From assembly GCA_048213135.1 (NCBI GenBank), contig PS015164.1, positions 1 to 64,000 of the forward strand: DNA of 64,000 nucleotides, read 5' to 3'. This document shows, one piece after another, positions 5,746 through 63,963 of this stretch. The DNA is from Reclinomonas americana ATCC 50394. Lineage: Eukaryota. The notes beneath the pieces are model-generated. The model was given only the letters and a program-made list of their open reading frames with translations. It ran no database searches and was not told the DNA's origin. Numbering within the stretch: the stretch's first letter is position 1; the number at the start of each line of letters is the position of its first letter. The position numbers and the translations under genes were made by a program.

Positions 5746-6916
5746 CTGGTTCCGTGTCAACGTCGACACTCAGCGTCGCATCCACGACAACAATCAACGG
5801 TCGGCTGCGCCTGAAGCAGGACAATACTAACTATACGGTTTCCACACCCGATGGATATGGCTTCCTGCAGTACACGTCGACGCAGAAAGTTTCGTGTTCG
5901 TTTCCCGGTCGAAGTTTTTCTTGCTTTGTACTCATCATTGATGCTGCCGCCAGTTGTACTTGCTCGGTGACGATGGAACGTACTACAGCATGACAACCAC
6001 GGTCAGTTCATGTTTTTGTCGATTCTGCTCTGCTCGCTGTGCTCACCTTGCTCGTTCTCCGATGCAGACGGGTTCTACGCCCTCGGACGCCCGCCTGAAG
6101 CAGAACGTTCAGCCAATCGCAGGCGCCAATAGCCTCGTCCGTCGACTCCGTGGCCGTACGTTTGAGTGGAATACGGTGGGTATTGCCATGTGGCTGTGTG
6201 TGCGTGTGCGTCTGTGGACATTTGTGAGACTCATGACGTCGATTCGTTGTATTGCAGGCCGCCAAAGCATTCGGGTTTGAGCCAGGCGAGAAGTCGATCG
6301 GCTTCATCGCCCAGGAGCTCGAAATGTTGGTTCCTGAACTGATCGAGACCGAGCGTCACCCCAGTGGCTTGGTGAGTCTTGCTGCCCCAGTGTGGCAGTC
6401 GAAATGATCGCTCACGTATCTACATTACAGTCTGTTAAGCGAGTTGCTTACGGCCCGGTGGTGGCCATTCTTGTTGAAGCGCTGAAAGAGCAGCAGTTGA
6501 CACTGGAGCAGCAGCAGTTGACACTGGAGCAGCAGCAGTTGACACTGGAGCAGCAGCAGTTGACGGTGGAGCAGCAGCAGAATGTGCTCACCGTCTACGA
6601 TGCCGAGTTTGCGAATCAGCGGCTGAAGATGGCTGATCAGGAACGTATTAATCGGGAGCAGGAGTTGAAGATGGCTGAACAGGAACGCGTGACCCAAGAG
6701 CAGCTTGCCGAGCAAAAGCGCATCACACAGGAGCAGGAGCTGAAGGTGGCTGAACAGGAGCTGAAGCTCGCGGAACAGGAACGCGAGTTGACCGAACTTC
6801 GTCGTCTTGCCGAGGTGCACTCGCAGCAAATCGCCGAACTGAGCCGTTTGATGGCCACGCTGGCGGCAGCACGTTCCAGCAACGAACTTTCCCAGCAAGA
6901 CAACAAGCCAATGTAA
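1..6916 (+). CDS. Giant G/S/T repeat fibre-like protein with C-terminal peptidase S74 / intramolecular chaperone (ICA) domain and coiled coil; 5' partial
   Basis: Repeat exon to 5888 (two N gaps), then exons 5954-6001, 6068-6175, 6258-6371 and 6431-6916 joined by GT-AG phase-0 introns. The spliced product has PSDARLKQNVQPI, GFIAQELEMLVPELI and VAYGPVVAILVEALKEQQ, which are classic S74 motifs. Confidence 0.9.
6488..6580 (+). repeat. 21-bp coding repeat (EQQQLTL x4) in coiled coil
   Basis: gagcagcagttgacactg-type unit repeated; heptad period. Confidence 0.9.
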
Positions 6917-6972
6917 CAACATGCAGTGTTTTATTGACAATCTCTCCAACAATGGTTTGGCACCTCTATTCT

Positions 6973-13663: not shown

Positions 13664-13695
<32 letters not shown>

Positions 13696-14352: not shown

Positions 14353-14392
<40 letters not shown>

Positions 14393-15316: not shown

Positions 15317-17986
15317 TCAATCGGCGGTGACGAGAAGTTCCGGTGACAAGAGATCCAACCGCAGTGTCTCGCGCGGTATCCGGTTGCCGTAGATCAGCAG
15401 CGATCGCAGTGACTTTGGCAGTGCCTCCGTGTCGAGCGAGCTGATCTTGTTGTGCGACAACTGCAGCGTGCGCAGCGTGCGTGGCAGGCCGCCCGTGTCG
15501 AATTCGCGCAGCTTGTTGCCGTGCAGCTGCAAGTGGATGAGTGGAATGTCTGCCGGCAGCTGGCGCGTGTTGAAGCGGCGCAGGCGATTGCCGGGCAGCA
15601 TCAGCGACGTCAGCTGCGGCGGCAGGGCGGCCAGATCCAGCTCCTCAATGTCGTTGCACGACACGTCGAGGACGCGCAGCGTGCGCGGCAGCAGGCTAAT
15701 GTCGAGGCCGAGCAGTGCATTGTCGAGCAGGTACAGCTCACGCAGGCCCGGACACAGCGTGCACAGCGGTGCGGTGCCTGCGAAAGGGGGAAGAGGAAAG
15801 AGGGCGCAGGGGTGAGGCGGGAAGAGCGAACGGGGGAAGAGCGAAGGGGGACGACGGAAGGGCGGTAGCGAAACAGGAGAAGAGGAAGGGGGTATTACAG
15901 GGGGAAGAGCGAAGGGAGAAGCGCAAAGGAAAAGCCAAGGGGGGAAGAGGGATGGAAGGGAGAAGTGCAAAGGGAAAGGCAAGGGGGTAAGGCAAGGGGG
16001 GAATGGCAAAGGGGAAAGGCAAGGAGTAATGAGCAAGAAGGATAGGGGAAGGAAGTAAGGAGCACAGGGGGGTGGAAGAGCAAAGGATGAAGAGCGAAAG
16101 GAAGAAGGAGCAAACGGAGAAATAGCAAGGGGAATGGCAAGGGGAAGACCAAAGGGCAGTGCTCTCACGCAACTCAACCCCAGCGCCTTCCCGCCATCCA
16201 AAAACGTCGGCGCAAACTCGTGCTCCGCCGCAGGCCTCCAGCTCTGCATGCACAACGAGCGCAGCTTGCTCGACAGCGGCACATACAGTGACATGGTCTT
16301 GTTGTCGGGATTGGGCACGGGCGGGAACACTGTCGGGTTCGGCGACGGCGCCGACGGCACCACCGGCAAGAAAATGACAAAGGCCGTGGTGGAGGTCGGC
16401 TCCGACGAGCAGCAGGCGCGTGACAGCGATTGCGGGTGGTGCAGCTCGTGCACCAGGCCGTCAAAGGCATACAACCAGTCGTCGCGGAACAAGTACATGC
16501 CAAAGTCGACCGACAGGGAGGTGAGCGAGGGGAACACTGTACGCGGAAGAGTGAGGAAGGCCGGGCGCGCGGGGAGGAGACAGAGGGAGCGACCACTGAC
16601 CGTGTTGTGCCACGAGAAACGTTTTCCGAACAGAAAAGAAGTCTGTGAGCGCAGTGAGTGTGAGAGGGCAGCATGTGCAGGCAAGAGCAACGCACCAGTG
16701 TCCAACGACTGCACCGACTGCTCGATCATGGCGCAGAACTGTGGAAGACGTGAGTTGTCTTTCACATGATCTTGCTCTCTCTCTCGTTGACTCACTCACC
16801 CACGAGCTCACTCGCCACAACGAATGTGGTCGCTGGTAACAGTCGCCAACGCTGAGGAACGACAGCACCTGATCTCCATGAGGTGAGGAACAGAGAGTGA
16901 GAGAGAAGACAAAGAGACACAGACGACACACCTCACTGACGAGCTCCGTAGGCAGATCTGTGAGCACAAGAGTGAGCAAGTGAGGGATGTGCAGTGTGTG
17001 AGCGTGAGAGACGCACCTGTGAACTGAAGCATCGTCCTCTCTCTCCCTTCTCTTGTGGCAAAGATCGAAACGAAGGTTTTTACGATCGCGCGCGCGAAGT
17101 CGTTTGTCCGCAAGAGGCGGGGTAACTGTGGGGGAGGTGGCGATGGTGGTGGAATAACGCAGCCAACAAGGCAAGGCAAGGAAGGAGGAGAGTGTCGTGA
17201 CAGGAGGCAGCAAAGCCAGCTGCAGGCGATCGAACGTCGACGATCGATTGTGGATCAGCTGCAAAGCGATCGCCACATGCAACTGCTGAGTTTCTAAAGC
17301 CCGCTTTAGGCATATCTCTTCTGCTAGATCCAGCCAGTGTGAAGAGGCAGCCATCGATCGATCATGATAGAGCACAAGCCAGTGTGAAGAGGAAGACATC
17401 GACTGCGAAGTTGTCAATCGCGATCCGTCAATGACCATGCTGCAGTGCCCGGGGATCGGCTACAACTTGCTGCTGCATAGTTCTTCTTGCCACGAGCCCA
17501 CTCTCATGCACGAGTCAACAACAGGCGATCGCTGCGATCAACACTTCTCAAACAACACATCGCCTGCATTCTTCACCTCTCCTTCTCCCTCAATGCGCGG
17601 GCCACCACTGGTGCCGCGACCAGAGGAGGTGGCGATGGCACCTCAGACGACGCCACCTGCAGTGGTGGAGGCGGTAATGGTCTCCACTGCTCTGCCTCTC
17701 CTCCTCCTCCTCCCTCTTGCTCATGCAATCCGGAAAAGATCGACACTTGCGGTGGTCTCAACACAACGCCCGACGGGAGCGTGATTGACTCCGTGTGCAC
17801 CGCAGTGAGGAAGCGAAGGAGAGAGAGTTTGACGTGTCTGTGCGCGATGAGCATGCAAAACGAGAGAGGCAGTGAGAGAATGAGCATGCGCAACTCATTG
17901 TGCTGCCGGTGTCGTTGTCGGCGTCGACGCAAAGCCTCCACTGCTCTGTGGCGAATCACAGCGGCCACCACAGAGTCGCTCTCCAT
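15317..17986 (-). CDS. F-box / leucine-rich-repeat protein (multi-exon)
   Basis: F-box-like DLPTELVSEVLSFLSVGD; C-terminal LPxxLxxLxLxxN repeats (LPRTLRVLDVSCN, LPPQLTSLMLPGN, LPRTLRTLQLSHN). The N-terminal exons and start are tentative. Confidence 0.75.
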
Positions 17987-18041
17987 CAATCAATCAAACA
18001 AACAAGAGAGGGACAGGAGGACTGTCTGCAGTCTTGGCAGT

Positions 18042-19564
18042 TCATTTGAAATAGTACACGAGGAGCGTGACGGCCAGCACCAGCAAGAGGAACGGCAAAA
18101 ACGTGGCCAGCAGTGCCGCCGTGGAGGTGAACTTTCCGCGACACACAATGTTGGTGCCGATGCGTGCGGCGTTCCAGTCGGTGCGCCCGGCGTAGCGCAT
18201 CCGTCGCAGCGCGTACGCCACGTGCGAGTGGCAATTGTCGCAGCAAATATTGTGCACTCGTCGACTGTACTCTCGATTGGCGGCACGCACTGCCGCGTCC
18301 CACGCCTCCGCCTTGCTGCCGTGCGCACCGGCGTCGTCCGGGATGAGCGCAGGGTCCAGTCGCCACACCCTGCACCACACTCAATCAGTACCCCGACTCT
18401 GCAGTGGAAGCAACAAGCAGAGAACGGAACCGCAGAGTCGGGCCAAACACAAGCCGCCCCGAGTTGATGTAGTACGGGCCGGCAAAGTCGTAGATCACCC
18501 CGCGGCTGTCGCAAATGCCCGCGTGGCCGACGAGAGGGAACAGCCAACTGCGAGGGAGGGGAGAATGATGGGAGAGGAGAGAGAGGGAAGAAGGGGAAGA
18601 GAAGGAGAAAGACGAGGAGGAGGAGAACAAGAACAAGAAGAAGAAGACGAAGGACAGGAAGAAGAAGAAGAAGTAGAAGAAGCATGATGAGGAAGAAGAA
18701 GAAGAAGAAGAAGAAGAAGAAGAAGAAGAAGAAGAAGAAGAAGGACAAGAACTACAAGAACAACAGCAAGAGCAAGAACAAGAACAGAACAAGTGGAATG
18801 ACGAGAAGAAGAAAGAAGAGCCAAAAGCAGGAGGAGAAGGGGAAGCAGGAGAAGACAGGTGTGAGTTAGGCGTCGCCTTATCCATCGCCTGGAACACACT
18901 CTTCTCCTTCCCTTTCCTCTCTCTCTCTCTATCTCTGTACCTCAAGCACGGCAACGCCGTCCACACCACCGAGTACGGAAACAGCCGGTTGGCCGGCGGC
19001 AGCGGCTCACTCTCCGGCCACAGCATATCCCCGCTTTCAATCTCACCACCAAACATCGGCGTCGCATCCTTTCATTATCACACAGTCAGCACGGAGGATA
19101 GTACAAGAAGAAGAAGGAGGAGGAGGAGGAGGAGGAGGAGGAGGAGGAGGAGGAGGAAGAAGAAGAAGAAGAGAAGGAGGAGGAGAAGAAGGAGAAGAAG
19201 AAGCAGAAGAGGAAGAACAAGAGCAAGAACAAGGAGAAGAAGAAGAACAAGAAGATGAACAAGAAGAACAAAAACAAGAACAACAAGGAGAAGAACAAGA
19301 ACAACTAGAAGAAGACAGAGAGGAGGAGGAGAACAAGAAGAAGAGGAAGAAGAGGAAGAAGAACAAGGAAAAGAACAAGGAGAAGAACAAGAACAAGAAC
19401 AAGAACAAGAAGAAGCCAAGAAGAAGACAGGAGGAAGAGGAGAAGAGGAGAAGAAGAAGACTGATTGCATGTCTTTGTGTGCGCGCAACTGCATCACTTT
19501 CAAACATGTCAGCAGCGACTGTGCGACTGCCGCCCATGGGTGCCACAGAGGGACCGCCACTCAT
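18042..19564 (-). CDS. TMEM222: TMEM222 / RTE1-like (DUF778) membrane protein
   Basis: FPYSVVWTALP, GHAGICDSRGVIYDFAGPY and HNICCDNCHSHVAYAL across 4 exons. Confidence 0.9.
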
Positions 19565-19638: not shown

Positions 19639-21144
19639 ATGTATGTCGAGAAAGGCGAGGTCACCAGTGTGCGTCCGCGCTTTGTGAGCAGTGTGAGTGG
19701 CGATGTGAGTAGTAGTGTGGTTGCTGGTGCGGCGGCGCCTTCGCCGGATCGACGGGCGGATGAGCGGCAGCCGGAGGAGTGCAGACCACTCTGTTGCGTG
19801 TGTGTGTGTGTGACATGTGCCACAGACGCACGCACGCACGCACGCACGCATTCACGGAGAGTGCATAGAGAGAGTACACACACAGAGAGCAGAAAGAGCA
19901 CAGAGAAGAGCACACTGACTGCATTCTTGCAATTAATCACTCTCATTGCATTCGCTGCATTCACTCAGTCTCCCTTTCTCTTTGCCTGCTTCGTTCTGTG
20001 CCTCTTGCGCACGCTCACTCACTGCTTACCTCCTTCCCTGCCTTCACGTCTCTCGTGCGNNNNNNNNNNNNNNNNNNNNNNNNNNNNNNNNNNNNNNNNN
20101 NNNNNNNNNNNNNNNNNNNNNNNNNNNNNNNNNNNNNNNNNNNNNNNNNNNNNNNNNNNNNNNNNNNNNNNNNNNNNNNNNNNNNNNNNNNNNNNNNNNN
20201 NNNNNNNNNNNNNNNNNNNNNNNNNNNNNNNNNNNNNNNNNNNNNNNNNNNNNNNNNNNNNNNNNNNNNNNNNNNNNNNNNNNNNNNNNNNNNNNNNNNN
20301 NNNNNNNNNNNNNNNNNNNNNNNNNNNNNNNNNNNCGCTCTCATTCACCCTCGCTGTAGCCTGCTTCCTTTCCGGCCCCTTGTGCTCACTGCATCCACTA
20401 CAGATCACTCGTGCATTCACTGCCTCACTTGCTGCATTCACTCGCTAATCGCCCTCGCTCGTGCTTCATTGTCTGCCCTCCCATCACTCGTGCACTCGCT
20501 GTATCCACTCACTCCTCATCATCCACTCGCCTTTCTCACTCCCTCACTGCCTGCCTCTTTGCGTGCCTCCTTGCTCACTCATTCTGTGTGCTCATGTTCA
20601 GTCCTGAAGCTCGGCGTGGTGGAGAAGAGTCGCGGATCGGCCTACATTGAGCTGCACAACACCAAAGTCATGTGCTCAGTGTTGCGTCGCTCACTTTGCG
20701 CTGCGTGTCTCTCTGCTCGTGTTCTCCCGGCTGCTCATCTTATTATTGCGCTGCCAGGGTGGGTCCTCGCCCGACTGCGCGCCCCGAGTTCACCGAGCAA
20801 GGCCAGTTGCATTGCAGTGTGCATGTGGCTCCCTTTGCCACCCCTGTGCGTCTCGTGCCCAACTCTGTTGCGTCCCCTCGGTTGCGCTATGTAGAAGAGG
20901 GGTGCTGCCCTGCTGACGCTTTGTGCAGTACGAGTCGCGTGAGTTGGATCGGCAGCTGTCGCTGCAGCTGTATCAGGCGCTGGAGGCGTGTGTGCGGCTC
21001 GATCGCTTCCCGAAGTCCGTCGTCGATGTCAATGTGGTGGTCATGGAGTCGGATGGAGGTGTGTGAGGGAGGGAGGAGGAGGAAGGCAAAGAACAAGAGA
21101 GCAGCAGCAGCATGAGAGAGCGTGCAAGAAAGCAGAGAGTGAGG

Positions 21145-21232
<88 letters not shown>

Positions 21233-21838: not shown

Positions 21839-22728
21839 CTTGTGTGCATCAGTACGTGTATGGATGGAGAGAGTGAGAGCAAAAGGCGACGAGAGTGCGG
21901 ACGAGAGGAGAAGTGCAGGGAGTGAGATGCAGGGAAAGAACAGAGACTGGGACAACGCGGCCAGAAGACCACAGATTTAAGCTGCACGAAAACATCGGCG
22001 ATGGAGTCCACAAAGAGAGAAAGAGATGAACGCCGAGGAAATGAGGCCAACAGCAAGAGCGAGGAGAGGAGGACAGAAGCACACCTTAAGTGCACCATCT
22101 GAGCGAGAAGCGGAAAGTATGAAATGGAGAGACTAGACTTTGCTGCACGACGGCAGCTGAGATTCATAGAGCGCAAGACAGTGAGTACAGCAAGGCAAAG
22201 GAAAGTGACTTCTCCTCCCTCTTGTCCCTCTCTCCTCCCTCTCTTCTCCATTCGCTGACCGACCGCGTCACAGGCACTCTGAGTGCCATTATCAACTGCG
22301 CATCACTGGCGCTGGCCGACGGCGGCTTTGAGATGTACGATCTAGTCGCGGCGTGTCAAGCAGTTTCGCAGCCTTGTTTTTTTTCACTCCACCTCTCCTT
22401 CGCACATGCTCACTCCCCCCTCGCGCAGTGTGAACTGCAACGCAGCATTGTGCTCGACCCCACTGCCGTGGAGGAGCGCTACCAGACCGGCAGTATGTGT
22501 GTGGCCTACATGCCGTCGCTGAGCGAGGTCACACTGATGACACAATCGGGCGAGATGAGCGTCACCAAGGTGATGGAGGCCATTGATCTGGCACTCGACG
22601 GCTGCTCTCGAATCCACGAATTGCTACGCTCGCATCTGCTGGCGTCGCTGGTGGAGCAGGAGGAGAGAAGAAAGCGGGAAGAGGAGGATGACGATAGAGC
22701 AATGATGGCGGTGGATGGAGCAAAGTGA
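19639..22728 (+). CDS. EXOSC6: Exosome RNase PH subunit, Mtr3/EXOSC6-like
   Basis: GSAYIELHNTKVMCSVVGPR, RFPKSVVDVNVVVMESDGG, ASLALADGGFEMYDLV, VLDPT. Confidence 0.8.
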
Positions 22729-24016: not shown

Positions 24017-26448
24017 TCATGCCTGGAAGAACTTTTTCCACGCCTTGGCCTTGTCGGCAAGCGTCTCGCGAGCCGATGCCGACTGTTCGGGGGCGGATGC
24101 ACCAATTGACCAGTCGGGCGGCGTTGCACCGACGTGAGACATGGCACTGGCGACGGCGTTCTCGTACGTGGTCACCGTGTGATCGGAGATCATGGTCGGC
24201 GACAGGCGGATGCGCAGGTACTCGCCGCGAGACGACACTCGTGGTCGCCAGGAAACCGGGGCGGGGGTGGTGCTGCTGCTGCTGCTGCTCGCAGAGGTGT
24301 TGGAGGCGAACATGGGCGACGACAACTGGTTACGCGCCGTGGCGACTGCATTGGCCACGGCGGCGGCCGAGCGTTGGAGCACGGGGACGGGCGTCGCCAC
24401 GTCACCCGTGTTCGGATCAATGCCACCAGTGGCTTCAGCAGCAGCACCGGCGGCGGCGGCGGCATCCTTGTTGAGGGTCGCCGCCATGGCCGCCTGGCGC
24501 AGCTTGGAGATGCGCTCCGTGACGTTGGTGACTAGGGCGCTCAGCTCAAACCCGGCTGTAGATGTTGACGCGGCGTTGCTCTTGGTGGTGGACGTGGCGG
24601 CCGCAAAGGGGTTGTGTGGCAGCTGGATGGGAACCGGCGCGGGTGGAACCACAGTGTCTGTGCGGGGGAGAGAGTAAGAGAGAGAGATGGAGAGAGCATT
24701 GCAGGAAGAGAAGCGTGAAACTCACCTGGAATCACGCGCGCCAGCTGAATGATGCGACCGGGCACGCCCAGTGTGGTGGAATCTGTCTCGCTCCACTGGC
24801 CCAGACTGCGGTGCGAGAGCACAGAGATATGACAGTGGAAGGAAGTCGTGCGACAAAAACGAGAAGAGTATTACCTATAGGTCAGCGTGAGCGGCACGAG
24901 GTCGCGCTGCACGCGTGAGAACTCGTCCACAAATGTGTTGAGGGAGGAGATGGAGAGGCGCGGAATGATATCGTCACCCGCCACCACCGACACCACGTGA
25001 TCCTGCAGTACTTCGCTCACAGCAGCCGAGCCGCAGGGTGGGACTGTGTGGGACACAAGAATGAGCGGGGGTGCGAAGAACAAGGGATGGGGGAAATATA
25101 TGGCACTCAACTGGCAAATGCGTAGCACTTGACTTTGCACTGCACGTGCTCCTCTGCGAAGAAAGCACAGTGAGATGGAAAGGAGGGCGCAGAAGTGATG
25201 CAGGTCAACGCACGCAACTCTGCACAATCAGGTATGCTGCGCAATGACAAGGGTGAGCAAAAAAGCATGATCTCAGCAAAGGGTACGCGCGACGCAACTC
25301 AAGAGCGCCGCCACTCCGCCACCCAATGAGTGCCCACAAATGTACAGAGTCTCATTCGGGTTCTGGGTGAGCGACTGGAACCACGGCTTCTCCTCGATCT
25401 GCTTGTACACGAACACGGCAGCCTTCCACACACCCCAGTGAACCCACACATCGCCGTCGCCCACATGTGCCTCCTGCACAGATGGAAAAAGTGAGAAGTG
25501 CGGAGCATGCACTTTCCGCCTCCCGCTCCCAGACGCACCTCCAGTGGCTCTTCTCCCGAAAACCGCAAATCCGTAACCACATCGTGCACACTCTCCGTTC
25601 CTCGAATCGTCAGTACCACGCGCTCTTCACCGAGCTTGCCGGGGATGCCCTCGCCCACCTGCTCCCGCACCACGCAGAATACTGGCTGTAGCGCAGAGTT
25701 GCGCTTCTCCTCTTGCAGCACCACTCCCAGCGGACCGTGACCGGTGCGATACAAGGTGCGCGCATGTCGGAAAAACCACCCGACCTCGTACATCTCCTCG
25801 ACGGTTGGCGTCAGCTTGCTAAACACTCCGAACACATTGTCGAGCAACTCGGAGCGCTTGTCGCGGTACGCGGCCAGCGCTCGCATCCACACACAACGGT
25901 CCATCCAGTCTTGCAAGTCGCGCACGTCGCGCACCGTCACGTGCATGAGCGACAGCAGATCCAACATGGTCGCCAGCTGACTCTGCCCGACACTGCGTGG
26001 CGGGAGTGAGAAGGTGGAGAGAAAGAGGAAGAGTGGAGGAGGGAAAGGAGAGAGACGCAACAACGACGCCGCAATGTCGTACAGCCAGCTGACACTCTTT
26101 TGCACTCTGCAGAGCACGGTAAGAGCGCGTCTCCAGCCCTGCGTGTTGGTGAGCATCGCAACTGTGGATCCGCGACTGCGACTGTCGGTGGTGGTGCCTG
26201 ATTGGTGGTACTGCTGCTGGTCAGCGTGGCACTCAGTGCCTGCTCCCACTTTTTTGTCAGAAACGCGCTGGCTCCACGGGCCTGCGAACAGCATGTTAAC
26301 TACAAGCAGCGACAACGGTGCATGTGGAGGTCAAGGTGAATGCTCACCTTGACCGTGAGCTTCTCCAGGGCGACGGGTGGCGAGGCGAGGCGGGAGGCCT
26401 GTGGAAACGGAGCATGAGGAAAGGAAGGAGAGCGGCTTGTCTCGACAT
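24017..26448 (-). CDS. Class 3 lipase (DAG lipase-like), multi-exon
   Basis: IRGTESVHDVVTD, VHWGVWKAA, GHSLGGGVAALL, CYAFAIPP, GDDIIPRLS; start approximate. Confidence 0.88.
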
Positions 26449-31875: not shown

Positions 31876-33717
<1,842 letters not shown>

Positions 33718-44858: not shown

Positions 44859-45403
44859 TCTCTTCTTATTCTTCTTCTTTATCATACTCTCACTCTTCCA
44901 CTGTCTACCTTCCCCCTTTCTCTCCGCCCTTCCCTCCTCTCTCCTCCTTTTCCCTCCCCTGACTTCCCACCCACCGGATCATCCACCACCAAGTTCGGCG
45001 AGCCAATCAGCCACTCAGGGGCAAAAGTCATCTGCAACCACCTCGTACCATCAGCACCGACACCCTTGCCGAGTCAGACAAAAATCGCAACCACGCAACC
45101 CAGCCGCCGTACAGCTCGCCGACGCACACCAACGTCTGCACAAAGTGACGCCACGGCTTGCGCGCAATGATTCTGCCACGAGATATGCGCACAACACAAA
45201 GAGCAGCGCACGAGCGATCACAACTCACCCGTACAGGCACATCAGTGCACCAGGTCCCTCCAGCAGCACAGTGACACTGCCTCGCACACAGTCAGAACAG
45301 CGAAGAAGAAGAAGAAGGATGAGGAGGAGACGAAGAAGAAGAAGAAGAGATGCATGCAAAGCGAGATGCATAGAGAGAAGGAGAAAAGAAAAAGACAGAG
45401 GAT

Positions 45404-45438: not shown

Positions 45439-46312
45439 ACAAGAAGAAGAAGAACAAGAACAAGAAGGAAAAGAAGGAGAAGAAAGAGGAGAAGAACAAG
45501 ATCAAGAACAAGAACAAGAACAGGAAGAACAAGAACAAGAAGAAGAAGAACAACAACAAGAAGACGAACAAGGTCAGGAAGAACAGGAAGACAAGTGGAA
45601 ATAGAAGAAGAACAAGGAGAAGAAGAAGAGGAGGAAAAGGAGGAGGAGAAGAAGAAGGAGAGAACAACCACAACAACAAGAAGAAAAAGATGCATGCAGA
45701 GCGAGATGCAGAGATCAAGAGGAAGAACAAGAAGAACAAGAAGAAGAACAGGAAGAAGAAGGAGGAGGATGAGCAGCACTACGCAACAGCTCCAGCGACA
45801 GCGTCGTGGGGTCAAACACTCCCCAGCGCTTGTCAGCCTTCCCATACTCGCGCCCTAACCATGCATGGCGCAAACGTGAGAACAACACTCGTTTTCCAGA
45901 GCAGAGAAAAAGCGCAGTTTACAAACGCAACACATCAAGGCAAACGGCGAGTCACTGGTGTTGGCACCACCGTGCGCGAACGACACTGAGAGAGAGAGCA
46001 AAGAGTGTGAGAAAAAACATGCATTTTTCGTGTTATTCCGTGCATGTCAATCTGCATGTGAGAGCGTGTGTCTGTGTGTTGAACAGCACTCTTCTCTCTC
46101 TCTCATACACACACACGCACACACAATCACTCTCTCTTCCCTTTTCCTTTCTCTCTTCTCTCTTCTTCTCTCCTCCCTTTCTACCTCATCTCTCTTTCTC
46201 TCCTCTTCTCCCCACCCCCTCTGTCACTCCCTCCCTCCGTCACTCTCTCCCTCGCTCCTTCTCTCTTCTTCTCACTCACTCACTCCCTCTCTTTTCTCTT
46301 CTCCCTCCCTCA

Positions 46313-47196: not shown

Positions 47197-48273
47197 ATGG
47201 AGCCTGCTGCTGTTGCGTGTCTCCTCTGCACTGTCTCCTCATAAGCCGCTCATTCCCGTCGCGTGCAGAAGGAAGAAGCCCGCGGTAAGGTATCTCTCTG
47301 TGTCTCTCTGTTCTCTTCTCCCCTCTCTTCACGCTCACTCCACCACAGAACGACGACGTGTACGTGTGCCCAGTGCAAGTCTGTCGCCGATGCGCTGCGT
47401 TCTATGGCACAATCGAGCTGGATTTCCTCTGCTCTCAGTGCGCGCGAGGAGGTTCATATGCTTCTTCCTCTCCCTCTTTCGCGCGCGCTATCTGCTCTCT
47501 CACACACACACGCGTGTACATGTAGAGGAACCGCAGTCACCGCGCACTCGTGCTCAGAGCTGGCTCGATGAGGCCGTGGCCAGTGGCGAAATGGTGCCGT
47601 TTCCGGACGATCTCTGTTGCGTTTCTCTTCTTCCTTCCTCAAGGCAATCAACGACCATTGCTGACTTCTTCGTGTGCAGACGAGCGACTGAAGAGTTCCG
47701 CTGGACTCCGCCTCCTCACTGCTCATTTCCAGCATCACTGACTCGAGAATGCAGGCATTGTGCAGCGACAGCGAGATATCGAGCCGGCGTACCTGTGGCG
47801 ACTGATCAACAACGCGGAGGTGGTATGTGTGCAAGGCCAGGCGTCGCATCAGCGTTTTTTTTCTATGCTGCCAGTCTCACCCCCCCGCCCGTTTGCTCCG
47901 TGCAGGCCTTCCCGCACGAGACGCCGAACCGCCAAGTGTGCTTCATGTTGTCGGCGGCGCAAGCCGACGAGCTGATTGAGGAACTGGGCAAGCGCGGCAT
48001 GAGCGATTACAAGTACGAGCAGTTGCGTTCCTCTCCTGCACTGTCACTCACCCTCCCTCCCCCTTTTGCTCACTTCGCACACACAGTGCCGTGTGCTCCA
48101 ACGTGCTGGATCCGTGGCGTATCCGCTGCAACGTCGGCTCATGTTACCACGGAAACTTTGGTGAGCCGCCGCTCCGCAAGGATGAGTTCCTGCAGGTGCC
48201 GCGTTGGGGACGAGGTGACGACACGGTGATTGGCGAGGTGCGCAGCTTTATCCACAGCGCGCGCAAGCGGTGA
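47197..48273 (+). CDS. A20-type zinc-finger protein with unrecognised C-terminal region (8 exons)
   Basis: A spliced exon encodes VCRRCAAFYGTIELDFLCSQC; the remaining exons splice in frame to the stop at 48273. Confidence 0.65.
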
Positions 48274-49356: not shown

Positions 49357-49410
<54 letters not shown>

Positions 49411-52400
49411 TTGACGCCAGAGAACAACAAAGAGTGTCACGGTGAAGCAAGCGTGGTCACGACGACCGCCACCACGGCTCCCCGTGTCAGCCAACAGCCA
49501 CCACCACGCAACTGCCACCGTGAGAGCGCATCCAAAATATCCGCGCGCACGACGAACGCATTCGGGTCGCTTGGATCCAGCTCCAACGCTCTCGTCTGCG
49601 CCAAACCAGTCCAGTCAGCCACTCAGCACTTCGCACCCCGCACAAACACTCACTCACTCACCACATCCTCCAGCGCCAGAGTCAGCATGTTGACTGTGAG
49701 TCGCTCGACTGCACGGCCCACCAGCGTGTCGGCGCGATTTGGCTCCAGTTCCAGTGCGAGGCTATAATCGTGAATCTAACAAAAGGTGTGAGACAGCAGC
49801 GACCGCAACAGACACGAACACCCAACGCAACTGCCTCCTCGTGTCGTTGCATGCTCGACAGCACTTTTGCGCGGTTGTACAGCGTGGCGGCGTCGTCGGG
49901 TTTCAGATGCAAGGCGAGATTGTAGTCCTCCAGGGCCTGGCACTCGACGGTTGAGAAACAAGCAGAATGCACGACAAGGGGGATTGAAAGCGCGCAAGGT
50001 CACCTGTGGGAGCGAGCCAAGAAGCTGGCGCAGGTAGCCGCGTCCCGCAAGTGCCTCGGCGTAATGCGGTTGCAGTTGAATTGCTCGGTCGCTGTTCGCC
50101 AACGAATGAGAACAACAGAAGCAGCAACGATGGCCAATGACAGCTGCACTCACTAGTCCGCCAACGCCTCCAGCCGCTTGCCCAGTTGCAGATTCGCGCC
50201 GGCACGATTGTGGTAGCCGACCGCATGCGTTGGATTCAAGTACAGCGCCACATTGTAGTCCTCGATTGCCGCGTCGTGGTTGCCGAGTGCCTGTCGGGCG
50301 AACCCTCGATGCTGCACGTCACACACGATCAGTATAACAGATCTTCCACCGTCAAGCCGGGATCAGGGCTCTCTAACTTCGATCCCGAGCACAAGGATCG
50401 GCCACTATCTATTCCACTCCGCTGATCACGACACCAAGCAAAAATCACAGTCTTCTCTCTCCTTCTTCCTGAAGAACGGAGGGCACAACAATTCCATCTC
50501 TCGCTCTTCTTCCTGACTCGCACACAGCTTGATTTCCCCGATCGTAACAGCAACCAAAGACCACAGTCTCTTCCCGCTAGAAGGAGCGCACAACAATTCT
50601 CTCCCCCCGACGCTCTCTCTCTCTCTCTCTCACTCACTCACTCACTCACTCTCTCAACCACGTTACCATTTCCCCGACAAAACACTAAGCAAGATCACAG
50701 TCCTCTGTCTCTCCAAGTTCCCCTTTGCCCCCACTCCCTCCCCCTTTCCTCCCCCTTCCTCACCAAGTGCGCTTGCACATCATCGGGATTCAGTTCGAGG
50801 GCCCTACGGACCGCGTCAAAAAATCGATACCCCTCACAGACCGGACCCAACAACACTCAACGGCACCTCTCAAAATCCGACAGCGACCGGTCAAAGAACC
50901 GTAGCCTCGTGTGCAGCATGCCACGCAGCGTATGCGCCGCCGCGTCAAACGGATTCCATTCAATGGCCTGATCGGTGGACCGGAGGGCCTCCCAGAAATC
51001 CTGCAGTCCAAACAGCGCCACCGCCCTCGCCATCAGCGCCGCCGCACGCTGCACATACAGTGAAGACAGCACCCCGTCAGCTGCTGCAACGCACGGGCAT
51101 ACACACGCTCTTCTCCCTTCTATGCTGGCGCAACTGCATTGGCCTCGACATCGTTCATCGGCTCACGCGGTGCCAGTTCCACCGCCTGATTCGCATCGCG
51201 GACGCCCTGCATGTAGTCGCCCCGATCATTATAGGCCCGCGCTCGCAGTACCAGGCTCTCCACTAGGCGCCCCCCCCCTCAGAGTGAGTCACGAGAGTGA
51301 GAGGGAAAAGGAACGGAAAAGCGGCACCTCTCTGCGCATTGTTGGTGGTGATCGCCAACGCCTCGGTCGCCAGCGAACAGGCCCGCACCAGATCGCCCTC
51401 CCGCAGCGCCCGATCGCCATCCGCAATGAGCTGCTCGGCTCGGATCTCCGGGTTCTGCAGTGTCACAAAGCGCGACTTTTCTAGCGACCCTATATACCAA
51501 ACAAAGGGCGTTCAGTCACCTATGACAGAGATCAGAGACTTCAAGGCAAGCACATGCCTCGTGGAGACGACGATGAGCGCGGGGAACTGCTGCTGCGCGC
51601 AGGCACCGAGGGTGGTGCAGGCAGGCGCAGACGGACTCCGCTAGCGGTGATCACTTCGTAGGTGCGACGGCGACTGATGGGAGGGAGAGAGGAGAAGGGT
51701 GAGAGAGCGATATGAGAGAGGAGGAAGAGAGAGAGGAGAACGAGAGAGGTGAGCGCGAGGGAACATGGGGAGAGAGAGGAGTGGAGAACGAGAGAGAGGG
51801 AGAGAGAGAGAGAAAAAGAGGAGTGGGAGGGAGCAGGGTGAGAGAGAGAGCAGGGAGAGAAGAGCAGGGAGAGAAGGAGAGAGAGGAGAGGAGAAGAGCA
51901 GGGAGAGAAGGAGAGAGAAGGAGAGAGAGAGGGAGAGAGAGGGTGAGAGAGAGAAAGAGGAGTGGGAGGGAGAAGGGTGAGAAGGAGAGGAGAGGGGAGA
52001 AGAGCACGAGAACGAGAGGAGCAGAAGGAAGAGAGGAACATGACAAAAGGTCTTCTCAGCATGATAGCAGGTCTCGCACACACACACACACACACTTCAC
52101 TCTTTTCTCTCTCTCACACACACACTTCTCTCTTCACTCTCTCTCTCTCTCTCACACTCACCTTGACAATCCACTGACGACATGCTGTTGCTGCTGCTGC
52201 TCATGCTGGTCTTGCTGCTGCTGCTGCTGTCGCCTCCGACTGCTGCGAGAGCGGCGACGCGGAGATGCCGAGGTCTCCTCTCTCTGNNNNNNNNNNNNNN
52301 NNNNNNNNNNNNNNNNNNNNNNNNNNNNNNNNNNNNNNNNNNNNNNNNNNNNNNNNNNNNNNNNNNNNNNNNNNNNNNNNNNNNNNNNNNNNNNNNNNNN

Positions 52401-53008: not shown

Positions 53009-56000
53009 TCACAGCTCGCGAGTGAAGCCTCCCAGTTTCTCGCGCACTTCGCGCATCATTTCTCGGGCGTCGATTGAGGTGGGGCGTGATTCGTCGTACA
53101 GTGACATGCACCTGTGGGTGGCGGTTGGTCAAAGGCTCCATCTCCCTCGTACATCCACCGTTGGTGCTCTCCGCAAATCGCTCACTCTACTGCGCTTCCC
53201 TTGATGTGCTGCGCCAGATGCAAGGCGTGCGCCTCTCCTCTCGTTCTCTCTCCCCTCCATCTCCTCTCCGTCCCTCTCCTCCCATCAACTTCACGCAACT
53301 GCACCCCCAAATGCAACATTCCCCGCGCCACATCCTCCGGCCACTCGCCAGCATCCCGGTCGACCTCGGCCAGTGCATCCACGGTGGACGGGTTGCGCTC
53401 CCATCGCGGCGCCTGGGTCACGAGCACGCGCGCCTCTCGTCCAGTCAACAACTGCAACAGAATCAAGCCGAACGCGTGCATATCCATCGACTTGCGGATC
53501 TCGCCAGAGCGCAGGAACAGCGGGTCGACGTAGTGCGGCGAACCAGAGTGCGTGCCAGTGTATCGGTGAGTCTGTCGCGATCGAGGGAGAAGGAGAAAAC
53601 AAAAAACAAGTTGAGCTTTGCATAGTTGGTCGTCGACGAGTCGTCACCCACGCCGCACCTCCCCCTTGTCAAACATGCGCGCAATGCCAAAATCGGCTAG
53701 TCGCGGTTCACAGCGCCGATCAAGCAGGATATTTGACGGCTTGAGATCGCGGTGCACCACCTCGGTCTGTGCCACCCGGTGGTTGCATGAGCAACAACAA
53801 CAGCCGCCGAGCGGGCAGTCGGACGCACACATACCTCGTGCAAGAAACAGACACCCTCGGCCACGCCGAGTCCGATTTGCACGCGCTCCATCACCGTGAG
53901 TGGCACCATGTCGGCTTTCCGTTTCAACAGCCGCACCTCCAGGTCGTGCCCACTGCAGCAGGAAATAAATGAGAAACAAAGTCCGGCAGGCGTGCAGGGT
54001 ACACAAGAGCGCGCACCGCATGGCCTGATACACAAGACACCGCTCACGAATCTCGTCCTCTGCCAGTGCGGCGTAACCCAGCAACGGCACGAGACGACGG
54101 TGACGCAGCCGGCCAAGTGTGATGAGCTGCACAACGGTGGTCAGGAAGTTTCCTCTTATTCCACGCTTCTCCTCTCCATCTTTTTCCTTCTCATTCCCGT
54201 GCTGTCATCGCCTGCTCTCCCTTTCACCTCCTCTCCCCTCTCCTCCTCACCTCCACTTTTCTCTCTTCTGGCATTACTCTCCGCTGCTCTCTTCTCTCTC
54301 TTTCCTCTCATTTTCCTCCGCTTTCTCTCTGCCTCCCCTCCATTCCTTTCCTCTCTTCTCATCCCCACGAATCTTCATCTCATCTCTGTCCCCCTTTCTC
54401 TCCTCCACTTTTCTCTCTTCCGCATTACTCTTCATTGCCCTCCTCCGTCCTTTCCTCTCATTTCCCTCCGCTTTCTCTTTGCCTCCCCTCCATACCTTTC
54501 CTCCTTCTCATTAATCTTAATCTCCTCTCCTCTCCCTCTCCTTGTGTGGCCTTTCATCTCCTGCTCTAACCTCCTCTCCATCGTTGCTACCCGCCTTCTC
54601 CTTTCCCCTCCCCTCACCTCTCCTTTCCCCTTCCCCCCTCTCTCTCTCTTTCGTTCCCCAGACCTCTCTCCCTTTGCCTTCCCTTCTCCCTCCACTCACC
54701 CCTATCCTCCTTCAATTTCTTCTCCTCTCACATCCTCTTTTCCTTTCCATCTCCCTCTCATTTCTCTTCTGCTCCCTCTCTCCCTCCCTTTCTCCCTTCC
54801 CTTTCCCTCACCTCTCCCTTCCCCTTCCCCTCCCTCTCTTCCTTCCCTTTCCCCACCTCTCCCTTCCCCTTCCTTCCCCTCGCCTCTCCCTCTCCCTCCC
54901 CCTTCCCTTCCCCTTCCCCTTCCCCCTCTCCCTCTCCCCTTCCCTCTCCCTTCCCCTTTACACACCTCGGCCTCATACGACTCACTGGCCCACGGCACCT
55001 TGACATCGAGTCGCTTGATCGCCACATCCTCTCCGTCCAGCACCGTCAGGTACACCTCACCCTGCCCGCCCTCGCCGGCCTTGTAGCGGGCCGAGAACGC
55101 CTCGGTGGCACGCACGATATCGGCCCAGTCGTACTTGCGCAGACAAATGCCGCCAAAGCCTGCACACACACAGTGAAGAGCGTCAACCCTTGCTGAACAC
55201 AAAGCCACTCCCCCCCTCATCACGCGACTGCAGGTCGTGGCAAGCTGCACGCGCAAACGGGCGACTTCGCGAGAGAGCTCCTCACACTGCTGCTGCAGCG
55301 TGTGCGTCTGTTCGGCCGCCGCAGTTGCCGCCTGACGTGCATTCTCCTGCGCCGCCGCCAACTCGCGTCGCAGCTCGACCGCCTCCAGTGCACTATGCTG
55401 CGCCAGTGCACTCGCGACACGCTGCTCCTCGGCTGCACGCTCGCGCTCCTCCACTGCCGCCGTCAGCTCGCGTCGCAGCTCTGCAATAGTTTGATCTCTT
55501 TCCGCCAGCTGCCGCGCCATGGCTGCCACCTCTGCCGCCTGAGCAATCACATACACACACAAAATGAGGAGGGATGACTTTTGATTCCGCTACAAAAACG
55601 ACGTACTCCTGCAGCCTCCGCCGCTCGTGGTGCCGCCAGCTGCCGCAGCTTCTGCCTGGCACGCTCCAGCTCCTGCACCGTCTCCTGCGTGTGCATATGA
55701 TCTCGCGATGTGCACCGCTCTCGCAGCGTCACCGTCTCTGACAACAGCTGCACCGCCTCGGCCACCTCATCGACCGTGTTACCGTGCGCCAGCGCCACGC
55801 CCAGTGCATGCGCCGAGTGGAGTCGCGTGCGACTGCGCGCGCCCCACGCTGCAGTGCGCTCACGCAGCGCAATGCGTCCCACTCGCACCGCCTCCTCGTG
55901 CATGCCACTCAGCGTCAAGGCGCGCGCCAGCACCGTCTGCACATGCGTAATGGGCCACGAACGGCGGTCGAGCACTGCGCTTGCACGCTCGAGCACCTCT

Positions 56001-56926: not shown

Positions 56927-57070
56927 AGTGTGCTTAGCACTGCCAACTTTGAGGTCGCAAAGGGATTTGTTCCGGATGAAGTGCTTCATTTTCTTTTTTC
57001 CATTCTGCTGGCACCGCTGCCCTGCTGCTGTGCTGCACTCCTCCTCAAGGGTCATCTTCGTCCGTCACAA

Positions 57071-61006
<3,936 letters not shown>

Positions 61007-61449
61007 TGTGTCTGCGCTCTCTCACTCGCTCTTTTGGAACTGAATCCTTGTCCGCAGCACAGCACAGCAGAACCGATCCTCGGACGGGCAGTAGAATCTC
61101 ACTGTTGGAGCATAGCTACATTGGCCCCTTGTGCTTCCACTGTCTCTATGATTCTATGATTGCTTCTCGCACACCACGCCCTCTCGACAGTCTCCCTTGT
61201 TGGCGCGCGGCAGAGATGGTTGAGTGTACATACTTCCGCCATATGCGGTTGGCGAGTGAAGCATTCTGTCTTGGGAGAACGTTTCCTTTGAAAAGGGGTT
61301 TCATTCGTGCATGAAGCATGCTACAGGTGGGGAAACAAGAAGAAGAATCTATTGGTGGTTGGTGTTAGTGGTGCTGGTGACAGTGATGCTCGTCGTGTGC
61401 TGTCCGCACAGCTGCTCCATTGAATCACACGGCACTCCCGCCCGTCGTC

Positions 61450-63963
61450 TTACACCACGGTGCGCGGGTCCGAGCAGTAGAACTTGCCCTGGTTGAGCGT
61501 GTCGATCAGACGCATCTCTTGGTCTGTCAGCTCAAAGTCGAAGATATCAAAGTTCTCACTCCGGTGATCCGAGTCCGCCGTGCGCGTCAGCACCACTGCA
61601 CGTGTGTGCAGGTGAACCACTGAGAGCACGCAAGAAGCACAAATACAACACGCACCGTTGCCTTGCTGCAGGTTCCAGCGCAAGAAAATCTGCATGCGCA
61701 ACCAAGAGAGAGAATCAGTCATTACTCACACCAATTCATGGTTGTCTGTGATGATGTCACCTGCGCGAGCGTCTTGCCGTGCCTCTCGCCAATAGTCTTC
61801 ACGTCGTCGTTCGAGACGTCAACCAGCTGCGCAGCACGGCGATCGTGAGCATTCATGATCATATGCATGATAACAACGTGTTGTGCCTACGCACGTTGCC
61901 AGTGCCGAGCGGCGAGAATGCTTCGACCACGATGCCACGGTCGCGGCAGTAGCGCACCAGAGCGCTAGGTGACAGGTGTGAGTTCGTGGCGGTCACAATA
62001 ATGAGTGAAGATCTGCAACATACAAAAGACACTCACCGCCGAGTGAGGCGCGGATGCACCTCCACCTGGTTCACCGCAGGCGGCACCACACACTCGTGGA
62101 TCAGCTCCTCCAAGTGAGAGATCTCAAAGTTGGAGACGCCAATGGCACGGGCGCTGCGCAAGCATGATCATGACTCAGTGGACTCATCACATGAGCTGTT
62201 CATGTGTCTGTAACAGCATCAGCAACACTGACCGGCCGGTGGAGTGGATTTTCTCCATCGTCTTCCACGTCTCCAGACGGAGGAGTGAGTTCCTCGAGTC
62301 CGTCTCGTCGCTGTAGCTCAATTAATAGCTGAAGACCCATACACAAGTGAACTGCGATAAGACAACACCCTGACGCACAGATCATGGGCGCCTGTGTGCA
62401 TCGAGTGAGTGAGTGCTGACTGCTGACAAGTAGGGTGTGAATGAATTGCCTCACCAGGCCAGCCAATCAGGTACAGGTCGACGTAGTCCACCTGAAGGCG
62501 CTCGAGCGAGTTGTGGAAGCACTCCATGGCCTTGCCGCGACTGCAAGAAAAGTGTCAGTGGGGTCATCCTTTCAGGAGCTTACACACCGGTTCCACTCGC
62601 ACGCAACCCCAGGTGCTTGTCATCCAAGCGAGTGGTCAGGAAGATCTCGCCACGAGGCACTCCGGAGTCGCGAATGGCGCGGCCCACTGTCACCGCCAGG
62701 ACAAGTTAGCGTGATTTCGCACCAAGGACGCTATTGTACGACTCACCCTCCTCCTCATTGTTGTACTCGGCAGCCGTCTGCGCAGATTCACAACAGCACT
62801 CGTCAAGCCTCTCAACCTCACAGTCGCGTGCATCTCTCACTCACTCACATCAATGAGGCGGAAACCGGAGCGCAGAGCGCCCAGCTGTTTTGCATCGTCA
62901 CAAACATCAGTATCGTTCTTGTCGACAACTCGATTCTGCCACCACTCACCACCGCATCGTAGCAGTCGTCACCAGTCAGGTTGAGAGTGCCAAAGCCGAG
63001 GACTGGCATGCGCACTTGGCGGCCGTCGCGCACACTCGGCGTCTTGAGCGTCACCATCGGCTGGTGCATGAAAGAGTAGCGCGTGCCGAGACCGCCTCCT
63101 CCCACTCCGCCGGTGCCACTGGTGCCGTAGATCTGCGACCCGCCTCCCTGCTGGTAGCCGCTGGTGGGGGTGCCGTAGATCTGGGAGCCCTGCGGGTACC
63201 CCGAGGTGAAGCCACCACTCACCGGGATCTGCGGTGACAAGCACCACAGAATGAGAAGAATTCGAACGAGTCATTAGTGACGGGCGACGGCACGACTCAC
63301 CGAGCGCACGCCACTGCGCAGTGGCACGCCGCTGCCGGAGACGTTCGACAGGCCAGTCGTGCCGGCGCCGCGCGTGTAGTCTTGCGAGAGCGGCACGCCC
63401 TGCTGCTGCTGCAACTGCTGCTGCTGGCGCCAGACGTCGCCAGAGCCCACTTGCTGGTGCTGCAACGGGCGCTGCGGATAGTTGACCGACTGCTCCGGAA
63501 CGGAGAAGGGATAGGGGCCAGTGTTCTGCTGTTGCTGTTGCTGGCCCTGGCCCTGGCCCTGGCCCTGCGCCCACTGGCGTTGGTACTCGTACGCCGGCAT
63601 CTGCTGCGTCTGCTGCGACGACTGCGCCCACTGGCGCTGGTACTCCGGCTGCTGCTGCTGCTGCTGCGACTTGAGGTACGTGTACTGCGGCTGCTGCAGC
63701 GTCTGCGACACCGGCTTCATCTGCTGCTGCTGCTGCACGTACTCGGGCACGTCGCGGCCGAGCGTCGACGACGACGTCACACCGGTGCCGGTGGTGGTAA
63801 TCGGAATCGCACGGCTCGTCGACGTGGTCGACACCTTTTCACGCGTCTGTGCGTACATACCAGTAGCAGAAGGAGCAGTAGAGTATTAGGCATGATGTGC
63901 AGGTGTGATGCGAAGAGGCAAGCGCTTGAGAAACAGATCTACTCGCAACGCAACATACGACAT
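61450..63963 (-). CDS. Aldo-keto reductase-like paralog 2 with long Q/G/Y-rich N-terminal extension; catalytic K and H substituted
   Basis: [55 protein letters not shown]; start inferred (63963, alternative 63858). Confidence 0.88.

Follow-up and report, generated by a model that had tools for sequence, protein, structure and literature searches.

We report a second, sharply defined class of 5′ splice sites (donors) in Reclinomonas americana ATCC 50394. The analysis covered the first 64,000 nt of contig PS015164.1 (GenBank assembly GCA_048213135.1), from here on the window, which is nuclear DNA of an intron-dense eukaryote. Ordinary donors with G at intron position +5 are accompanied there by donors with the consensus C-A/G-T-T-G-C-G-T (the slash marks the exon-intron border), in which the conserved G stands at +6. 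These shifted donors account for 24 of 87 predicted introns (28%) in a gene parse that required GT as sole donor signal and for 25 of 83 in a parse that modelled both donor classes. On the sequence evidence, we consider it fairly probable that the introns are of the U2 type and are handled by one spliceosome, and that their donors, C-A/G-U-U-G-C-G-U at the RNA level, are read one base out of register. An initial annotation of the same DNA had described such donors as a mainstream class and not a rare exception; for the window this holds, with 14–30% of donors depending on the intron set.

The shifted donor class and its junctions

The window contains 36 copies of GTTGCGT, compared with 9.19 in shuffled sequences (standard deviation 3.49, maximum 22), and 0 of 100 shuffles reached 36. 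Inside predicted gene spans, the heptamer occurs 16 times in sense and never in antisense orientation (p = 3e-5). The ordinary motifs have no such strand bias (GTGCGT, 23 sense versus 13 antisense; GTGAGT, 26 versus 20). The variant GTTGCGC is not enriched, with 5 sense versus 3 antisense copies in gene spans and one use as donor; the case for the C variants is therefore weaker.

Introns were predicted with a donor-agnostic gene finder, in which GT was the only donor requirement and scores were given for codon usage, intron length and, by a heuristic, branch site and acceptor. A first version found only 47 introns. The final agnostic parse contained 87, whose donors had G at +5 in 51 cases, G at +6 but not at +5 in 24 and neither in 12. 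At a low threshold the agnostic parse gave 85 introns, and a donor-aware parse, in which two donor classes were modelled, yielded 83, of which 56 were ordinary, 25 shifted and 2 other. In the agnostic parse, GTTGCGT ranked first among the donor heptamers (13/87); in other words, 13 of its 36 copies (36%) were used as donors, compared with 87 of all 6532 GT sites (1.3%). The gene finder is imperfect, as it recovered 11–14 of 17 reference introns in a phosphorylase gene. In an acceptor-anchored test with a position matrix, GTTGCGT lay 45–110 nt upstream of ‘strong’ acceptors in 11 of 36 cases and 9 were counted in the downstream control, the matrix being too weak.

The initial annotation had listed 36 shifted donors (donors are named here by the position of their first base). 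All 36 bear the motif given for them, on the strand given and each with GT, and 23 are supported as donors. The low-threshold agnostic parse used 18 of them, 20681, 22363 and 41118 were used in the donor-aware parse only, and for 59778 and 49512 the only support is homology or repeat spacing. Four are plausible without support (11399, 17894, 47212 and 53299), and nine were not supported or not evaluable: 14660, which adjoins an N gap, 19489, 19793, 31881, 35000, 37953, 43164, 45787 and, at the window edge, 63954. Five further donors of the same kind were absent from that list (20867, 26061, 41534, 41881 and 45931).

Unless stated otherwise, the two classes were compared in the agnostic set, with 24 shifted and 51 ordinary donors. 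On the exon side, the lack of G and the frequent A at −1 that had been claimed for the shifted class were borne out: −1 is G in 3/24 shifted versus 41/51 ordinary donors (p = 2e-8) and A in 16/24 versus 3/51 (p = 5e-8), while −2 is C in 11/24 shifted donors. On the intron side, T at +3 is found in 20/24 versus 8/51 (p = 2e-8), G at +4 in 19/24 and T at +7 in 18/24. Position +5 is C in 21/24 shifted donors versus 17/51 at the equivalent +4 of ordinary donors (p = 1e-5). The heptamers GTAGCGT, GTGGCGT and GTCGCGT, present in 0, 10 and 10 copies, provide 0, 0 and 1 donors.

Acceptor, branch motif and length do not differ from those of ordinary introns. The acceptor is CAG in 21/24 shifted introns, 24/25 shifted introns and 49/56 ordinary ones contain the branch motif CT[ACG]A[CT] at a distance of 7–45 nt from the 3′ end (median distances 16.5 and 19 nt), and the median lengths are 65 nt and 68 nt. 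Intron phases 0, 1 and 2 are represented 5, 11 and 8 times in the shifted class. Judged by their ends and by the homologous frame that is restored on splicing, exactly so at five junctions, the shifted-class introns would be U2-type GT-AG introns. Minor, U12-type introns are characterized by an extended, conserved donor of the RTATCCTT type together with a branch site of rigid sequence. This type was considered and rejected, the donor being GTTGCGT and the branch site CTCAC or CTGAC as in ordinary introns. As a separate observation, the downstream exon opens with T in 11/24 shifted versus 9/51 ordinary introns (p = 0.014; 0.06 in the donor-aware set).

Shifted and ordinary donors were said to be mixed in the same genes. 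The mixing is real, but the spread over genes is uneven (chi-square p = 0.0017): shifted donors make up 5/8 in the lipase region, 3/4 in the gene at 47555–48267 and 0/16 in the phosphorylase gene (7129–11258), the last compared with 25/67 elsewhere (p = 0.002). The uneven spread could reflect intron age, expression level or regulation.

The phosphorylase gene served as reference for ordinary introns. With our own protein-to-genome aligner, in which introns were limited to GT/GC-AG, 40 of 120 listed phosphorylase homologues were aligned to positions 5300–11600 on the minus strand. Sixteen introns received the same placement in 29–40 of the 40 homologues; a 17th is ambiguous, with GT at 7352 in 7/40 versus GC at 7343 in 31/40. 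All 16 homology-fixed donors have G at +5 and none is GTTGCGT. Position −1 is G in 16/17 (the ambiguous 7352 included), and +3 is free, with T in 6/16 (GTTTGT, GTTCGT, GTTCGC and GTTTGC; 7069–10710, minus strand). The introns are 58–85 nt long, apart from one of 301 nt, with CTCAC, CTCAT or CTGAC branch motifs and mostly CAG acceptors. The donors with T at +3 are reminiscent of the GTTTGT donors of Entamoeba. The closest glycogen phosphorylase relatives are about 60% identical, and two Heterolobosea are among them, including Pharyngomonas kirbyi.

Altogether 36 junctions were fixed by homology or repeat spacing, a set dominated by phosphorylase: 29 have G at +5, 5 are shifted and 2 are neither. 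The five shifted junctions were fixed exactly by aldo-keto reductase (AKR) homologues, by the continuity of Pfam profiles or by the 34-residue spacing of tetratricopeptide repeats (TPR). The shifted donors of the genes concerned are the following.

59772..59778, minus strand: GTTGCGT donor, AKR copy B, HID/TA junction, phase 0, 72-nt intron; exact in 16/20 homologues
57286..57292, minus strand: GTTGAGT donor, AKR copy A, phase 1, 76-nt intron; exact in 18/20 homologues
57447..57453, minus strand: GTTGCGT donor, AKR copy A, phase 0, 61-nt intron; agnostic parse
62601..62607, minus strand: GTTGCGT donor, AKR copy C, phase 2, 67-nt intron; agnostic parse
28439..28445, plus strand: GTTGCGT donor, myotubularin-like phosphatase, phase 1, 77-nt intron; continuity of Pfam PF06602
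49825..49831, minus strand: GTTGCGT donor, TPR protein, phase 0, 56-nt intron; continuity of TPR_1 and repeat spacing
49506..49512, minus strand: GTTGCGT donor, TPR protein, phase 2, intron of about 253 nt including a 20-N gap; repeat spacing, in neither parse

The AKR alignments used 20 external homologues picked from 150 and the tandem copies A, B and C at 57–63 kb. The HID/TAS junction at 59778, for which fixation by a protein motif had been claimed, is indeed fixed, with a mean of 9.8 identities within ±8 residues and 0.1 gaps. In three AKR paralogue pairs, intron position and phase are identical while the donor is ordinary in one copy and shifted in the other. The paralogue of the 59778 donor of copy B has the ordinary GTGAGT at 62848; where copy A has GTTGAGT at 57292 and GTTGCGT at 57453, copy C has GTGCGT in the same positions at 61655 and 61894. 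More generally, these three tandem paralogues (56950–63350, minus strand) share intron positions; copy A lacks an intron that is present in copy C (61760), and copy C has a long Q-rich N-terminal extension.

In the myotubularin-like gene, PF06602 position 61 closes the exon upstream of 28439, position 62 is the split codon and position 63 opens the downstream exon, the latter being extrapolated from exon residue 4, which is position 66. At 49831, TPR_1 positions 1–20 finish the upstream exon and 21–33 start the downstream exon. The D-Y motif of the TPR protein falls on residues 24, 58, 92, 126, [160] and 194, an exact 34-residue period across five introns including those of 49831 and 49512.

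Two fixed donors have G at neither +5 nor +6, both on the minus strand: CAG/GTGACC at 50003, fixed by TPR spacing, and CAG/GTGACA at 61760, placed by 13/20 AKR homologues. Both have a complete CAG at the end of the exon, apparently as compensation.

Pairing register and competing explanations

An ordinary site reads (C)-A-G/G-U-N-N-G-U, and a shifted site can be derived from it by exchanging the usual +1 G for U; in DNA letters, C-A-G-T-T-G-C-G-T stands beside the ordinary C-A-G-G-T-G-C-G-T. The reading that we favour starts from this likeness. With its 5′ end, the U1 small nuclear RNA (snRNA) would pair one base out of register, such that the first G of the intron would sit in the slot of the usual exonic −1 G, the last exon bases in the −2 and −3 slots, and the conserved G-U would land at +6/+7. 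Cleavage would still take place at the sole available G-U, one base upstream of the junction given by the U1 register, and U6 would accommodate one extra base between this G-U and its pairing with G+6/U+7. A recognition helix moved by one base would account for the loss of G and the gain of A at −1, for the gain of C at −2 and for the near-obligatory T at +3, because the usual −2 and −3 positions prefer A and C and the usual +2 requires T. The exon-side preference moves with the register, in that A, found at −1 in the shifted class, occupies −2 in 18/51 ordinary donors. The pairing register is what we infer from these donor and exon sequences. One extra base after GT, as the donors had originally been described, fits as a description, and the exon-side data speak more for a register that is moved by one base as a whole than for a bulge.

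Several observations weigh against this reading. The frequency of −1 A in the shifted class exceeds that of −2 A in ordinary donors, which needs an added compensation argument. When 25 shifted sites were paired by RNAduplex with a standard U1 5′ end, used in place of the host's own, pairing was very weak, with a mean of −1.9 kcal/mol versus −7.4 kcal/mol for ordinary donors. In the same duplexes with standard U1, the +1 G is paired more often with U1 position 9, as in the shifted register, than with position 8 (9 versus 3 of the 25 sites), but the best duplex of the other 13 pairs it with neither. GTTGAGT would pair better with standard U1 than GTTGCGT, yet it is the rarer donor (2 versus 13–15), and standard U1 in the shifted register is therefore not the whole story. 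Phosphorylase, the best-conserved gene, is without any shifted donor. Most members of the class come from our own gene finder, with its incomplete recovery of the phosphorylase introns. Finally, two of the AKR junctions are ambiguous: 57453, in a variable loop, is chosen by 4/20 homologues, while 9/20 prefer a GC donor 3 nt downstream, and 62607, in a variable region, is chosen by 7/20, with alternatives chosen by 3/20 and 4/20. As the C at +5 is not explained by the standard U1 5′ end either, the data suggest that the host has a U1, perhaps one among several, that departs from the standard opposite +4/+5.

This leads to a tentative alternative, in which a dedicated, co-evolved U1 variant, fully complementary to C-A-G-U-U-G-C-G-U, exists beside a standard U1 for ordinary donors and is changed, relative to that standard, opposite +2, +4 and +5. 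Nine positions are strongly preferred in the shifted class, including the +5 C. A hypothetical U1 with three changes pairs at −10.2 kcal/mol, as compared with −1.9 kcal/mol for standard U1, and places the +1 G opposite position 9 in 24/25 sites, but such duplex energies rest on invented U1s and prove nothing. According to the sections covered of Roy & Bowser 2022 (10.1101/2022.06.08.495308), donors and the 5′ ends of U1 have undergone co-evolution in Entamoeba and Mastigamoeba, and Physarum is said to hold standard and modified U1s. A changed or second U1 is therefore a live possibility here. The same sections describe no such co-evolution in Thecamonas or Mamiellales, which keep a standard U1 despite a preference for C at +4 (10.1101/2022.06.08.495308), and no snRNA gene was found in the 64-kb window: an Rfam search at the gathering threshold matched no family, and at E ≤ 5 it returned only low-complexity look-alikes of microRNA and untranslated-region (UTR) families. 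Possibly, then, though this is the less probable view, the major spliceosome reads two parallel 5′ splice-site codes, one through standard U1 for G/GUNNGU and one through a co-evolved second U1 for CA/GUUGCGU. If true, about a quarter of the introns would be one base off the universal register and cleavage would be uncoupled from the U1 register genome-wide; a second U1 complementary to CAGUUGCGU would be a novel case.

An unlikely explanation is that U1 pairs normally with +1 G and +2 U, that one U of +2/+3 is bulged out and that pairing restarts at G+4. The string G-U-U-G-N-G-U fits this as well as it fits the shifted register, the bulge register has been validated in human cells according to the parts covered of Tan et al. 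2016 (PMC4856993), and the AKR paralogue pairs differ as though one T had been inserted after GT. The position −1, however, would stay paired to U1 position 9, so that G would be expected where A prevails in the shifted class. Moreover, a bulged base need not be T, in conflict with the near-fixed T at +3 and with the single donor found among GTAGCGT, GTGGCGT and GTCGCGT, and RNAduplex pairs the +1 G with position 8 in just the 3 sites mentioned. It is the movement of the exon-side preference to A, not G, at −1 for which we favour the shift over the bulge.

We regard it as very improbable that the junctions were mis-called and that the true donor is the GC three bases downstream (GTT/GCGT, giving a GC-AG intron and one more residue) or another nearby site, in which case GTTGCGT would be composed of exon and intron bases. 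A 3-nt shift preserves the frame, 9/20 homologue alignments at 57453 prefer the GC, and a GC-AG intron may be used there; that the aligner does choose GC sites is evident from 7343, taken in 31/40 alignments over a GT 9 nt upstream. On the other hand, the GC alternative creates an in-frame stop at 25218 and 28439 (2 of 18 tested), would add a residue to H-I-D-T-A at 59778, where 16/20 homologues place the GT with 0.1 gaps, and, at 49831 and 49512, would upset the TPR spacing of 34 residues. An exonic GTT would also be needed in all three phases.

Similarly, we give little credence to the idea that the donors belong to a mobile intron family (introners) carrying a terminal GTTGCGT, which would make their likeness a matter of common descent and not of special recognition. 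The uneven gene distribution and the absence of shifted donors from the conserved phosphorylase gene would agree with it. Intron interiors, though, show no special likeness within the class: the mean local alignment score is 5.74 for pairs of shifted introns, for pairs of ordinary introns and for mixed pairs alike, and 5.54 after shuffling; three shifted introns occupy positions shared with ordinary-donor introns in AKR paralogues, and the exon-side C-A would be left unexplained.

Least credible is the absence of any separate class, with a simply degenerate consensus in which +6 G is a leftover of missing +5 G: ordinary donors are loose at +3/+4, the donors at 50003 and 61760 are verified with neither G, and 12/87 agnostic donors fall outside both classes, but a single heptamer makes up 13/24 of the class, one base reaches 75–88% at each of +3, +4, +5 and +7, the exon side differs with p < 1e-7, and the heptamer has a fourfold excess and a complete strand bias.

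Relation to known splice-site systems

That U1 recognizes a few atypical 5′ splice sites of humans in a shifted register was reportedly described by Roca and Krainer in 2009, and one-nucleotide bulge registers (+2/+3) are said to have been added by Roca et al. in 2012. The human shifted register resembles the class described here in the extra U after GU, the G at +6, the movement of all U1 pairs by one (proposed for the window class), the cleavage at GU and the dispensable −1 G. It differs in scale: all validated noncanonical registers together are estimated to concern about 1.5% of human sites, as given in the parts covered of Tan et al. 2016 (PMC4856993), versus 14–30% of donors in the window, where the pairing is deduced from sequence. 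The window class has in addition a rigid nine-base consensus with a +5 C that standard U1 cannot pair. The bulge +2/+3 register shares the donor string GUU-purine-N-GU, but a bulge leaves the exon side in place, whereas the exon preference of the window class is moved by one base.

Among systems with lineage-specific donors, as described in the sections covered of Roy & Bowser 2022 (10.1101/2022.06.08.495308), Entamoeba (U1 pairing with GUUUGUU) and Mastigamoeba (G facing +4 C) also have pyrimidines at +3/+4, and the ordinary donors of the window likewise permit +3 T, as in phosphorylase, and +4 C. There, one normal-register consensus has been transformed; in the window, two consensuses one base apart are found in the same genes. 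The strict GYGCGY donors of Mamiellales and the +4 C donors of Thecamonas, both read by standard U1, share the G-C-G-T core after GT, but they are in the normal register with +5 G, and the sections covered contain no GTT class. GC-AG introns and 3-nt tandem donors are similar insofar as GTTGCGT has an in-frame GC three bases past GT, a use excluded by stops at 25218 and 28439, by homologues at 59778 and by TPR spacing at 49831 and 49512.

Literature searches for a GTTGCGT or GUUGCG donor class found none; the heptamer queries mostly matched primers, supplements were outside their scope, and a description in a genome paper is possible. The mechanism has precedent; the scale and the own consensus of the class are without one. 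Noncanonical registers in humans have been proven minigene by minigene. A genome with a shifted site as a standard, sharply defined class would offer a natural system. It could address what sets the cleavage position when the U1 register and the GU disagree, how U6 tolerates an extra base before its pairing, and whether snRNAs and splice sites co-evolve in intron-rich genomes, as in Entamoeba. In practical terms, up to a quarter of the introns here would be spliced wrongly by a gene finder that had been trained on GTNNGT.

Further shifted donors and other features of the window

The remaining shifted donors are given below.

25292..25298, minus strand: GTTGCGT donor, class-3 lipase, phase 1, 62-nt intron; agnostic parse, profile length check
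25212..25218, minus strand: GTTGCGT donor, class-3 lipase, phase 1, 65-nt intron; agnostic parse, profile length check
25105..25111, minus strand: GTTGAGT donor, class-3 lipase, YAFA/IPP junction, phase 1, 68-nt intron; agnostic parse
26055..26061, minus strand: GTTGCGT donor, lipase gene, phase 2, 69-nt intron; agnostic parse only, newly found
20681..20687, plus strand: GTTGCGT donor, exosome RNase PH subunit, CS-V-VGPR junction, phase 2, 77-nt intron; donor-aware parse only
20867..20873, plus strand: GTTGCGT donor, exosome RNase PH subunit, phase 0, 62-nt intron; donor-aware parse, newly found
22363..22369, plus strand: GTTTCGC donor, C-terminal part of RNase PH subunit, phase 0, 66-nt intron; donor-aware parse only
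45093..45099, minus strand: GTTGCGT donor, EBP/EXPERA sterol-isomerase-like gene, YGGW/MTF junction, phase 0, 68-nt intron; agnostic parse
45925..45931, minus strand: GTTGCGT donor, EBP-like gene, phase 1, 77-nt intron; low-threshold agnostic parse only, newly found
43339..43345, minus strand: GTTGCGT donor past the end of the EBP domain, phase 0, 65-nt intron; agnostic parse
41118..41124, plus strand: GTTGCGT donor, multi-pass membrane protein gene 39810–42024, phase 2, 66-nt intron; donor-aware parse only
41534..41540, plus strand: GTTGCGT donor, same membrane protein gene, phase 2, 57-nt intron; agnostic parse, newly found
41881..41887, plus strand: GTTGCGT donor, same membrane protein gene, phase 2, 74-nt intron; agnostic parse, newly found
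47616..47622, plus strand: GTTGCGT donor, gene 47555–48267, phase 1, 64-nt intron; agnostic parse
47695..47701, plus strand: GTTCCGC donor, gene 47555–48267, phase 1, 60-nt intron; agnostic parse
48022..48028, plus strand: GTTGCGT donor, gene 47555–48267, phase 2, 65-nt intron; agnostic parse
51128..51134, minus strand: GTTGCGC donor, second TPR gene, phase 0, 86-nt intron; agnostic parse
55222..55228, minus strand: GTCGCGT donor, coiled-coil/kinase gene, phase 1, 69-nt intron; agnostic parse
16167..16173, minus strand: GTTGCGT donor, leucine-rich-repeat gene, phase 1, 396-nt intron; agnostic parse
18424..18430, minus strand: GTTCCGT donor, RTE1-like gene, phase 2, 61-nt intron; agnostic parse
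5889..5895, plus strand: GTTTCGT donor, repeat protein with Peptidase_S74 domain, phase 0, 65-nt intron; agnostic parse, junction not conserved

In the lipase gene, the exon downstream of 25111 begins at Lipase_3 position 103. Removal of the introns at 25298, 25218 and 25111 leaves 21 residues for Lipase_3 positions 81–102, which are 22 positions. The exosome gene gives a similar agreement: the exon upstream of 20681 ends at RNase_PH position 31 and aligns with human MTR3 to its final residue, and the introns at 20681 and 20867 leave 38 residues for RNase_PH positions 32–68/69, which agrees within 1. A PDB search with exon b of this gene gave no relevant match, and searches for homologous proteins with an RNase PH exon and with a myotubularin exon gave no matches. 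The exons on either side of 22363 match RNase_PH and RNase_PH_C, and the junction falls between the domains.

The YGGW/MTF junction at 45099 had been counted among those fixed by protein motifs. It is not fixed: the upstream exon ends at EBP position 73 (E = 0.011) and the downstream exon has no Pfam match. Neither has the exon between 45931 and 45787. The exon upstream of 43345 corresponds to EBP positions 90–113, the junction itself not being conserved. The junction at 18430 is likewise not fixed, as the exons match RTE1 positions 26–56 and 89–149, with 57–88 unaligned, and at 51134 the Pfam TPR matches do not cross the junction. No Pfam match was obtained for the exons of the membrane protein gene, for those of the gene at 47555–48267 or for the exon upstream of 37953, and Pfam gave only a weak kinase match for the exons around 53299. 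The donor at 55228 is the sole tabulated shifted donor with C instead of T at +3.

The guanine-cytosine content of the window varies from 41% to 61% across 4-kb bins. Sixteen N gaps sum to 3,722 bases, and no tRNA genes were found within the 64 kb. Long low-complexity stretches are located at 13000–14500, 19100–19400 and 27300–27600; they are poly-E/K-like in several frames, contain GA and CA microsatellites and draw spurious coding scores as well as spurious microRNA and UTR scores in Rfam. In the region 1–6865, tandem coding repeats extend over several kb and, on the plus strand, continue into a gene whose Peptidase_S74 domain (endosialidase chaperone) lies at 6068–6199. This gene also encodes a long Q/E-rich coiled coil, a tail-fibre-like architecture in an intron-bearing eukaryotic gene. 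Two intronless open reading frames on the plus strand, 32755–33714 (320 residues) and 35624–36421 (266 residues), appear by eye to be paralogues of one another.

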